From the IMG/VR virus record IMGVR_UViG_2534682078_000033: a DNA stretch of 8,767 nucleotides; one strand, 5' to 3'. Position 1 is the first letter of the stretch, and each line of letters opens with the position of its first letter. This stretch comes from a virus (taxonomy: Duplodnaviria > Heunggongvirae > Uroviricota > Caudoviricetes). The position numbers were made by a program. This document shows positions 6,001-8,767 of the stretch, in pieces.

Positions 6001-8767
6001 CTATCGCCCTTCTCCGCGACGATATGAAAAAGCTGGGGTATGAGATGAAGCACTTCCGGCGCTGGCTGTACAAGCTGGAAAATGATGGCGTAATCGTTAT
6101 TGACGGTGATGACGTGCGCCCGCTGTAAAAAGTGGGGAGTAAAAGTGGGGGGAGTGGGGAATTTAACAAAATTGAAACATAATTACCCACTTTCCCACCT
6201 GTATATACCCAAAAAAGTGGGGAGTAAAAAACATATTGAAAAACATAACGTTAGAATCACAAAAAAAAGAGGTGGGGAGACGGTGGGTAATTTCAAAAAG
6301 TGGGGAGCAAAAGTGGGGAGTAGTGGGGAATGAACAGAAAAACCAGAGATAAGACAGCGCCAAAATATAAAGCGTTAGACATGACAGAGCTTTCCTTAAA
6401 GGTGGCAATCAGAACGATAGACCGCCACGCGGGGGAAGGATACGCGAAGGAGCATCCCGAACTGATAAGCGCATTCATGACCACAGCGGCGGCAAACTTT
6501 GCCACGCTGACAGAACGGGAGATTGCCGAAGCGGAACAGGTAACAACCATCAACGTTAAAAGCGCTGGAGAATAACCGAAGAAGTGAGCACATAGCCGGA
6601 GCAATCCGGCTTTTTTTCGATCTCATATATCTTCAAAGATGGTTAATTAATGATAATCTATCGAAAATACTGGTTATGCAATGATAAGTATCAGGAGAAA
6701 ACAAAGTGGAAGAGATAAAGCAAAGCGCTACCGTGATGATTGATCATGAAATCCTTAACGAGCTTAAAAAGTTGCAGTTCGATATTGTGCGCCGGATGAA
6801 TGAATCAGGTATCTACGGCAGGGCGGCAACACCAACAATAGGGCATCTTGCGCGCGTACTGTTACGCGAACGCCTGGGCATTGCAACAAGTGAGGCGTAA
6901 ACAATGGCTATCACAGAACGCGAGGCAAGCATCATTAAAGCCATTGGCGAGGAAACAAGAGACACCATAGCGCCATTGATGGAAAAGATCGCAGAGCTTG
7001 AGACACGAATAAACAAGCTGAGTGATGAAGTTGAAGGCCTGATCTCGTTACTCGGTGAGCAATGACAGGGGGGGAGTGTTCCGGCCGGAAAGTCGATCGC
7101 CCTGGACACCGCCCCCCGTCTCATTCATAGAAAATTTTGCTTTTCAAAAAAGTTACACGAAAAGTTACACCCCCTCAAAACGAGGTTTTTGCATGGCATT
7201 AACGACCAAAAAAAAGCGGTTTGCTGATGCGTTATCAAAGGGCACAAATCCAACGGAAGCCGCGATACATGCGGGATACAGCGAAAAGACTGCAAGGGTT
7301 AAAGGCTGGCAGCTATCCAATGATCCGGAGGTGAAAAAGTATCTTAAGGCTGTAACTTCTGATGTAACTTTTCAGGTTACAAAACCGAAAAAAGTTACAA
7401 AGAAAGTTACCGAAAAAGTTACACCGGAACGGGCATCAATTAACACCATTGAGATGATGGATAACGGCCTACCCGACCCCATCAAAGCAATGGGCAGGAT
7501 ACTGATTGACAACATGGACACAGATCAAAAACTGGCTTTAGATGCCGCGTTTAAGCTGGCCCAGTTCACCCACCGCAAGATCGGCAGCATTGGGAAAAAA
7601 GAGGTTAAAAAACTCAATGCCGCTAATGTCTCCTCAAATCGGTTCCCCATCCCTAAGCCACCAACTGGCTTAAAACACTGAGGTAGCGAACTATGAGCGA
7701 ATACATCACAGACCCTATTGATGTACTCACGGAAATCATGAACGACAAGCAGCAGCCAACCGAAATACGGTTACAGGCTGCCGCTGTTCTGATGCCATAT
7801 TTTCACGAAACCCTAACCCCATGTTACCAGGAGGAAGAAGATGATGATTTCTAAAAACATGAAAGGCGTGTCGGCAGTTCGCGCCGCCAGCGTGCTTACA
7901 TCGTGTAAATTCAGCCATGCAGACGCAATTGAAATGACGAAAAAAAATGATCCGGCAGTATCGAAATTTCTTGAAAAATCCATTGTTGCCGGAATGACTA
8001 CGGATAATATGCCGTCGCTGGTGGCAGAGCCGATAGTAAGAGAGCTTGGCGAGTATATTTTTTCGCAGTCTGTACCAGGCAAGCTAATCAGCAGCGCGCT
8101 GAATCTTCCGTTTGGCGCAAAATTGCAGTCAATATCAGGCAAGGGTAGTAAATGGCTTAAAGAAGCCGAAGAAATCCCTGTCAAAGAGGGAGAAGTAAAC
8201 GAAAGTGCGCTAAAACTGTGCAAACTTGGCGCTATTGTGATGCTGAATAACGAGCTAATCAAATTTAGCACCCCTTGTACCAATTCAGCGATCAGAGACT
8301 TGATCACATCGGAATCGGTGAAAGAAATAGATAAAAAATTTCTTTCCAGTGACCAGGAGGTGGCGGGCGTATCCCCTGAGGGCGTGCTTAATGGTGCTGA
8401 TGAGGCCGAAAACTTCATAGAGCTTTTCAAAAAGCACATAGCGAACGGTAACACGCTTGCCACGTCGTCGCTAATCTTGCCCGTAGAAAACGCCTTACAG
8501 CTTACTGATGCTGAGTTCTGGCAGATAGAGCTTTTGAGAATACCGGTAATTGTGAGCGAACAGGCGGATCGCATGATGCTGATAGACGCTCAAAAGCTGA
8601 TTATTAACGTTGAAGCCACAGTTATAACCCCAACTGATGAGGCGGTAATAAAAACCGAATCAGGGACGGTTAGCCTTTTCCAGAATGACGCTACAGCGTT
8701 CAGGGCAATCACCTATTGCGGATGGCAAAAACTCGATAAGGCCGTCACCGTTCTGGCGAAAAGCTGA

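Follow-up and report, generated by a model that had tools for sequence, protein, structure and literature searches.

A conserved iteron array downstream of a RepA-type replicase gene is the probable replication origin of the Escherichia coli satellite EcCI11128

The window analysed here, an 8,767-nucleotide stretch filed as a Caudoviricetes virus in IMG/VR (IMGVR_UViG_2534682078_000033), matches the chromosome of Escherichia coli O111:H- 11128 at 100% identity, as it does those of many further strains, most of them O111. It is EcCI11128, a Gram-negative phage-inducible chromosomal island (PICI) of E. coli O111 that is listed at AP010960.1 2855234-2864550 (9.3 kb) in Table S1, the PICI catalogue, of Fillol-Salom et al. 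2018 (PMC6092414). The island is located between tRNA-Pro/yejM and yejO, and its genes, all on the plus strand, are arranged in the order integrase, helix-turn-helix regulator, Icd-like gene, DUF4222 gene, 'helicase RepA family protein' gene (rep), repeats, 81-aa gene, small terminase and capsid homologue. This content agrees with the general description of Gram-negative PICIs as islands of ~9-15 kb at a specific attachment (att) site, with int, an alpA-like regulator, replication and packaging/capsid genes, and rightward transcription. We examined the array of short repeats (iterons) at 6127-6330, which is very probably the origin of replication (ori) of EcCI11128, used by Rep, a RepA-type helicase with a C-terminal winged helix that is encoded just upstream. 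The features of rep and of the array are as follows, with the positions of cores given as the first base of GTGGG or of its complement CCCAC:

4728..6128, plus strand: rep, encoding a 466-aa replicase (Pfam AAA_25; RefSeq 'helicase RepA family protein'; AlphaFold models)
5901..6125, plus strand: coding region of the Rep C-terminal winged helix, aa 392-466, the putative iteron-binding domain
6051..6053, plus strand: codon 442, CAC (His), just before the recognition helix; putative determinant of the fourth iteron base
6129..6161, plus strand: left iteron set, three direct repeats with cores at 6132, 6145 and 6154; positions kept in relatives, where the cores change in concert
6162..6185, no strand: AT-rich tract 1, GC 12%, candidate melting site with forward iterons to its left and inverted iterons to its right
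6186..6198, minus strand: two inverted iteron cores, CCCAC at 6186 and 6194, which become CTCAC in GTGAG-class relatives
6199..6210, no strand: conserved non-iteron spacer CTGTATATACCC, whose CCTGTATA portion is kept in 6/6 aligned relatives
6214..6224, plus strand: central single iteron AAAGTGGGGAG, core at 6217 (repeat finder)
6225..6271, no strand: AT-rich tract 2, 47 bp, GC 21%, second candidate melting site
6272..6330, plus strand: right iteron set, five direct cores at 6272, 6283, 6300, 6313 and 6323

The array fills the gap between the rep stop codon and the ATG at 6330: its first unit overlaps the stop codon (TAA, 6126-6128) and its final core ends on the A of the ATG. Both a reading of the sequence and a repeat finder gave AAAGTGGGGAG as the unit type of 6127-6330, and the repeat finder returned families of 14-18 nt with inverted partners at 6186-6198. 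Eleven GTGGG cores (9 forward, 2 inverted) were present in these 204 bp, compared to 14 in the remaining 8563 bp of the window. With 0.33 cores expected in 6127-6330, the Poisson P is about 1e-13, and in 20,000 first-order Markov simulations of this segment the count never rose to 11. Exact copies of GTGGGGAG occurred five times within the array and once elsewhere in the window (at 5300), and no second iteron cluster was found in the window. The GC content of the array region was 0.33-0.34 versus 0.5-0.6 in the flanks. An earlier note, made from the sequence alone, had described repeats at 6127-6330 in both orientations, an AT-rich core, and a start at the replicase stop codon. The sequence reading, the repeat finder and the core counts confirmed the repeats at these coordinates, and the overlap of the first unit with the TAA agrees with the proposed start; the claim of two orientations was correct though uneven, and that of an AT-rich core was correct in the form of two separate tracts, the first of which is bracketed by opposed iterons (three forward cores on the left, two inverted cores on the right).

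Rep consists of three parts: a shuffled N-terminal module (aa 1-125), a RepA-type helicase core with a RecA fold (aa ~147-315), and a C-terminal winged helix (aa ~400-466). The match to AAA_25 (PF13481) was strong (E 2.6e-43, 148 bits, cutoff 27). The winged-helix fold of the C-terminal domain was predicted with confidence by an AlphaFold model and a fold search; in the predicted structure, the third (recognition) helix of the tail spans residues 443-452 and is immediately preceded by residue 442. The model of full-length Rep was poor (predicted local distance difference test, pLDDT, 65; predicted template modelling score, pTM, 0.45) and was therefore used only to note the RecA-like core; a Foldseek search with this model gave only weak matches, RadA/Rad51-like ones together with unrelated Rossmann-like ones. 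Searches of NCBIfam with Rep yielded only sub-threshold RadA matches, and a PDB sequence search with the full-length protein found no chain at E<0.01, RSF1010 RepA included. Pfam searches at E up to 10 gave no match for the N-terminal 125 aa and only sub-threshold NACHT and MCM5_C matches for the C-terminal domain. A profile of the C-terminal tail had weak matches to winged helix-turn-helix domains of the CRP/FNR type (E 0.14-1), a lead that was superseded by the fold search.

We then compared 87 loci encoding Rep homologues, from E. coli, Salmonella, Xenorhabdus, Pantoea, Pectobacterium, Serratia, Kosakonia and Oceanospirillaceae. At least four GTGNG cores were located within 263 nt of the rep stop codon in 78 of the 87 loci, and the remaining 9 were unclear, having variant cores (most of them) or no array. 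De novo repeat calling detected 6-13 copies 3' of nearly all intact Rep homologues, and the best 8-mer 3' of rep had a median of 8.5 copies versus 4 in equal-sized windows inside rep. In six E. coli relatives the position of the array was conserved and the cores were GTGGGGAG, GTGGGKAG, GTGGGC, GTGAGG (twice) and GTGAGTA. Beyond these relatives, a scan of one genome per species gave 80 further loci. A positional alignment showed that lineages differ by the same base change at about ten repeat positions simultaneously; the AAAAGTG prefix and the CCTGTATA spacer did not vary.

The iteron core co-varied with the C-terminal winged helix of Rep, and not with its N-terminal domain or helicase, the DUF4222 protein or the downstream genes. 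The iteron class followed only the last ~75 aa. For example, two loci that share iterons (L002 and L006 in our numbering) had 44% identity in the N-terminal part of Rep, 66% in the helicase and 65% in the linker, compared to 99% in the last 76 aa, whereas the window and L002, whose iterons differ, were 96-98% identical except in the tail (84%). Within the tail, residue X of the motif K-X-[FLM]-x-[RK]-W-[LVI], which is residue 442 of EcCI11128 Rep, tracked the fourth base of GTGNG with zero contradictions over the 87 loci:

X = Ser: fourth base C, 8/8 loci
X = Asn: fourth base A, 29/29 loci
X = His: fourth base G, 16/16 loci
X = Lys: fourth base G, 24/24 loci
X = Gly: fourth base C (GTGCG), 1/1 locus, a class that was not predicted

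Predictions for ten proteins from a homologue search, which had yielded roughly 2,361 homologues, were fixed before their DNA was fetched, and the array class predicted from residue X was correct in all ten, among them three pairs with identical 22-residue tails differing only by H versus N. When the 16 E. coli-clade Reps were scanned without bias, 239 columns were variable and only residue 442 separated the classes (normalised mutual information 1.0; next best Rep column 0.45), and the best association of any DUF4222 column with iteron class was 0.41. Parsimony on trees from any Rep segment gave at least 5-6 class switches. The closest contrast was between L004 (His, GTGGG) and L091 (Asn, GTGAG), in which the other 74 residues of the domain are identical and the DNA of the winged-helix domain differs by one C-to-A change in codon 442 (CAC to AAC); coding DNA flanking it is about 95% identical on both sides and intergenic DNA about 65%. 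Pairing of Asn with adenine and of His or Lys with guanine are commonly observed side-chain-to-base preferences. Residue 442 appears to set which repeat sequence Rep recognises. We consider it somewhat more likely than not that a one-residue code for the fourth iteron base operates in these proteins (His/Lys for G, Asn for A, Ser/Gly for C), and that E. coli islands alone have switched origin specificity at least 5-6 times, each switch changing one codon and about ten iterons.

The co-variation bears on the possibility that the repeats have no function of their own and represent either low-complexity slippage or an unannotated coding region. Two mechanical open reading frames (ORFs) of 77 and 81 aa do span the region (6100-6333, plus strand, and 6163-6408, minus strand). 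However, the architecture was kept over many genera while the core co-evolved with a protein residue, single-base indels between close relatives break any frame, and RefSeq has no gene there; the probability of this explanation is practically negligible. When the array region was searched against Rfam, no family reached threshold and only sub-threshold noise from eukaryotic families was seen. Chance, a coding region and an RNA gene were excluded by the conservation pattern, the frame-breaking indels and the Rfam search.

Several additional observations were made on the arrays. A spacer motif, CCTGTATA(T/C)A, at 6197-6207 between the inverted iteron pair and the central iteron, was present in nearly all E. 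coli-clade arrays (L002-L006, L091-L100) of any iteron class, a few having CGTGTATA or TCTGTATA in place of CCTGTATA; since it is conserved across iteron classes, it may be recognised by something besides the winged-helix domain of Rep. Xenorhabdus genomes (L012-L030 and others) often contained at least two copies of the RepA-type replicon per genome; their Reps are ~700 aa long, with a longer and different N-terminal part, and all of their loci encode Asn at the key position, with GTGAGGA arrays that reach 13 copies. Three loci (L013, L014 and L034) instead combine ATGAGGA cores with a wing sequence that is distinct (…NDGLITRN…QRNDD), a hint that a second position may contribute to specificity.

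In Gram-negative PICIs, according to the text of Fillol-Salom et al. 2018 (PMC6092414), two sets of iterons follow rep, with an AT-rich region between them, a layout common to all islands identified there, and the rep-ori segment of EcCICFT073 supports plasmid maintenance. Compared with a PICI/SaPI-type origin (SaPI, Staphylococcus aureus pathogenicity island), EcCI11128 has its array immediately 3' of the initiator gene, iteron sets around AT-rich tracts, and iterons in opposed orientations. EcCICFT073 has the origin slot in the same place, immediately 3' of the replicase, and the same upstream DUF4222 gene. However, its replicase, Pri-Rep, is a 584-aa 'DNA primase family' protein that is 65% identical to EcCI11128 Rep over aa 1-122 only (BLASTP), and its iterons are GGTAGACAG, within a 288-bp spacer. 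Because Pri-Rep shows no similarity beyond aa 122, the functional test of EcCICFT073 does not cover a replicon that combines a RepA-type helicase with a winged helix.

Sibling islands that share the Rep N-terminal module had TGGGACAAGT, TAACCCGCA, GGTAGACAG or TGTTCACC repeats in the same slot, next to replicases annotated as 'DNA primase family' and 'DUF927'. One of these, TGTTCACC, matches the repeat that GenBank annotates in satellite phage P4 as 'origin of DNA replication, ori type 1 repeat'; a literature search for the P4 iteron sequence gave no text match, and the GenBank annotation of P4 was used instead. The occurrence of different repeats in one slot, including one that matches the P4 ori, indicates that these islands have their origin in the slot 3' of the replicase, and the repeats go with the part of the replicase other than its N-terminus. 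The TGTTCACC repeats (about nine, at 5818-6105) were found in L008, an E. coli island between cspD and clpS-side genes, after a P4-alpha-like primase-family replicase; this sibling has the same DUF4222 gene and N-terminal module as EcCI11128, yet P4-type repeats in the equivalent position, showing that PICI-like islands and P4 share replication modules. P4 itself resembles EcCI11128 in being a phage satellite of E. coli with a multifunctional replicase that reads short iterons, but it differs in iteron sequence (TGTTCACC is absent from the window) and in its alpha protein, a primase-helicase and not a RepA-type enzyme. P4 also needs a second distant site (crr), whereas the EcCI11128 window has one iteron cluster.

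The N-terminal module, aa 1-122 (4728-5095, that is, the first ~368 nt of rep), was itself found to be mobile. Replicase bodies of at least three unrelated kinds carried it (RepA-type helicase; DUF927; primase-family Pri-Rep, that of EcCICFT073 among them), always behind a DUF4222 gene with a stop codon that overlaps the start of rep (L007-L010, L103), and it did not track the iterons. Its model has an alternating beta/alpha fold with pLDDT 60-90, and it may be a docking domain for the DUF4222 protein or for a host or helper factor.

The anatomy of the EcCI11128 origin is also similar to that of SaPIs, in which the C-terminal winged helix of Rep recognises 6-12 iterons that surround an AT-rich centre immediately after rep, and Rep is a self-loading helicase (PMC9371898, which cites Ubeda 2007 and 2012 for the SaPI origin and Rep). 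SaPIbov1, SaPI1 and SaPI5 and EcCI11128 have in common an ori downstream of rep, opposed iterons around an AT centre, and a C-terminal winged helix (predicted here for EcCI11128). In contrast, SaPI Reps have superfamily 3 (SF3) or MCM-like AAA+ motors (SF3/SF6), while that of EcCI11128 Rep is a RecA-fold AAA_25 motor whose core neighbours are RadA/Rad51; the proteins show no sequence similarity, and the host lineages differ. Since the origin anatomy is alike and the motors are unrelated, EcCI11128 may work in a SaPI-like manner without homology of the motor, the likeness being one of mechanism and not of common descent of the motor. RSF1010/IncQ RepA is similar to EcCI11128 Rep in belonging to AAA_25 ('helicase RepA family') and in serving an iteron-based origin. 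IncQ plasmids split the jobs, RepC binding the iterons, RepA acting as helicase and RepB' as primase, whereas in EcCI11128 the putative iteron-reading winged helix is fused to the helicase. Archaeal and eukaryotic Orc1/Cdc6-type initiators, which are AAA+ and not RecA-fold proteins, showed a fold-level resemblance only (8-16% identity).

The genes and features on either side of rep and the array are as follows:

4432..4731, plus strand: DUF4222 gene, directly upstream of rep and overlapping its start (Pfam PF13973, E 2e-23)
6330..6575, plus strand: 81-aa gene (phrog_1231), whose ATG overlaps the last iteron
6594..6611, plus strand: intrinsic-terminator-like hairpin with a T-run, which probably closes the replication-module transcript
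7055-7681, plus strand: homologue of the small terminase subunit, TerS (Pfam Terminase_2, phrog_641)

The hairpin, a strong one located directly after the 81-aa gene, has a 7-bp stem with 5 GC pairs followed by a T-run, and a 94-bp AT-rich gap (6612-6705, GC ~0.31) lies between it and the packaging genes; the two features together suggest that the replication module is transcribed separately from the packaging module.

The junction between the array and the 81-aa gene raises the possibility that the array is a Rep-binding operator, involved in autoregulation or in gating of this downstream gene, with initiation taking place elsewhere. The last repeats overlap both the ATG at 6330 and a Shine-Dalgarno-like GGGGAG (6315-6320, within the right iteron set and at Shine-Dalgarno distance from this ATG), plasmid iterons commonly double as regulatory sites, and the co-variation is evidence that Rep and the repeats are paired and does not speak to initiation. 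However, the array architecture was kept in loci without the 81-aa gene and in loci with ProQ-like or other genes 400-465 nt away. No sigma-70-like promoter was predicted in 5900-7200, the window lacks a second iteron cluster that might serve as origin, and the layout matches the validated origins of SaPIs and EcCICFT073. We therefore regard an operator with initiation elsewhere as unlikely. A regulatory side-role is compatible with an origin, and a secondary effect of the array on the ribosome-binding site at 6315-6320 is plausible. The downstream gene was also untied to iteron class: near-identical ORFs occurred beside both classes, arrays persisted with an SSB, ProQ-like or other gene as neighbour, and the 81-aa gene was absent from some array-bearing loci. 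The array thus does not have its specificity partner in this gene.

Another candidate ligand of the repeats is the small terminase, encoded in the island about 0.8 kb downstream, for which the array might be the packaging (pac) site; terminase recognition sites are often repeated short motifs. However, relatives that lack TerS and have SSB, PerC and capsid genes instead retained the array, the core tracked the Rep residue and not the downstream genes, and the terminator-like hairpin parts the transcription unit of the array from the packaging genes. The TerS-less relatives and the tracking of Rep by the core make a pac site very unlikely.

The array is thus best explained as the origin used by Rep. 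In the mechanism that we propose, the island would first be induced and excised, and Rep would then bind the roughly 11 AAAGTGGGGAG-type iterons via its winged-helix domain, with His442, at the start of the recognition helix, reading base four in GTG-G-G. Assembled on the flanking iteron sets, Rep would open either tract 6162-6185, which has opposed iterons around it, or the longer tract 6225-6271. Rep, as a hexameric replicative helicase, would self-load at the opened tract, as SaPI Reps do, and the excised island would then replicate autonomously. The expectations of the earlier note can be viewed in this light. The upstream gene that it took for a replicase encodes an AAA_25/'helicase RepA family' protein with a C-terminal winged-helix domain, and the SaPI/PICI layout that it recognised, with rep followed by an iteron ori, was borne out by the published layout of Gram-negative PICIs and by the catalogue entry for EcCI11128. 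Its proposal of a probable origin gained computational support from the layout, the conservation of the array and the co-variation with Rep. The comparison of iterons with related islands that it had suggested revealed that array class differs among relatives and tracks Rep residue 442, and this tracking, with the ten correct predictions, supports its view that the motif defines replicon specificity.

Several points weigh against an origin of this kind. The support for a RepA-type replicon is computational, and the validated Pri-Rep of EcCICFT073 is unrelated in its motor, its C-terminus and its iterons. That Rep forms hexamers and acts as a helicase is presumed from its family membership, and a primase domain was not identified in the protein. 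The two AT-rich tracts rank only 10th (6162-6185) and 8th (6225-6271) among the least stable 30-mers of the window. The AAAGTGGGGAG-type iteron sequence was not found in the text and supplements of PMC6092414, Figure 2a itself being outside the search. Finally, codon 442 is located only 75 nt from the array, and physical linkage contributes to the co-variation. However, linkage alone is insufficient to account for the pairing of Rep and iterons, because the pairing was kept across at least 5-6 switches while the equally close 3' neighbour was uncoupled; the L004/L091 pair likewise indicates that linkage is not the whole explanation.

Copies of the satellite with at least 99% identity were detected in 160 complete E. 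coli genomes (among the matches listed, mostly O111 Shiga-toxin-producing strains), and related versions were present in 579 of 5426 genomes. The rep-ori segment was also found in three records filed as E. coli plasmids (CP061244.1, CP061267.1 and NZ_CP031350.1): one, of 1.4 Mb and with 99.8% identity to rep-ori, is probably a chromosomal fragment, and the other two, of 171 kb and 187 kb, had 76-78% identity. Rep plus ori had no meaningful match in a phage collection, and transfer data for EcCI11128 were not found in the searched text of PMC6092414.

Elsewhere in the island, we observed a 607-codon stop-free frame (1717-3540, plus strand) that ends at the stop of the Icd-like gene and has a chance probability of about 7e-14 at this composition. 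Of this frame, RefSeq has just the final 66 codons as a gene, and inside the frame it has three small genes on the other strand. Open frames of comparable kind, 333-433 codons long, recurred in EcCICFT073, L010, L008 and L002, and not in five other relatives. The codon-position GC content of the frame (0.46/0.52/0.44) is not gene-like; the excess of third-position substitutions was slight, and the alignments contained many frame-breaking gaps.

Both the island and the layout of its origin are already published, and this kind of feature is known, since EcCI11128 and the layout both appear in Fillol-Salom et al. 2018. Two points are added here that had no counterpart in the searched literature: the replicon is distinct from the experimentally tested one, and one residue predicts iteron class. 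In practical terms, the array marks the probable cis-acting replication site of an E. coli satellite. The comparative result worth keeping is that reading of the origin can be assigned to a winged helix of 75 aa, which is fused to a RecA-type helicase, a motor type that differs from those of the studied SaPI and EcCICFT073 replicons. The single predictive residue provides a cheap, testable handle on replicon specificity and on the compatibility of co-resident satellites. If the one-residue code is true, co-resident satellites would obtain mutually non-interfering replicons, and replicon specificity would be predictable and re-engineerable from sequence.

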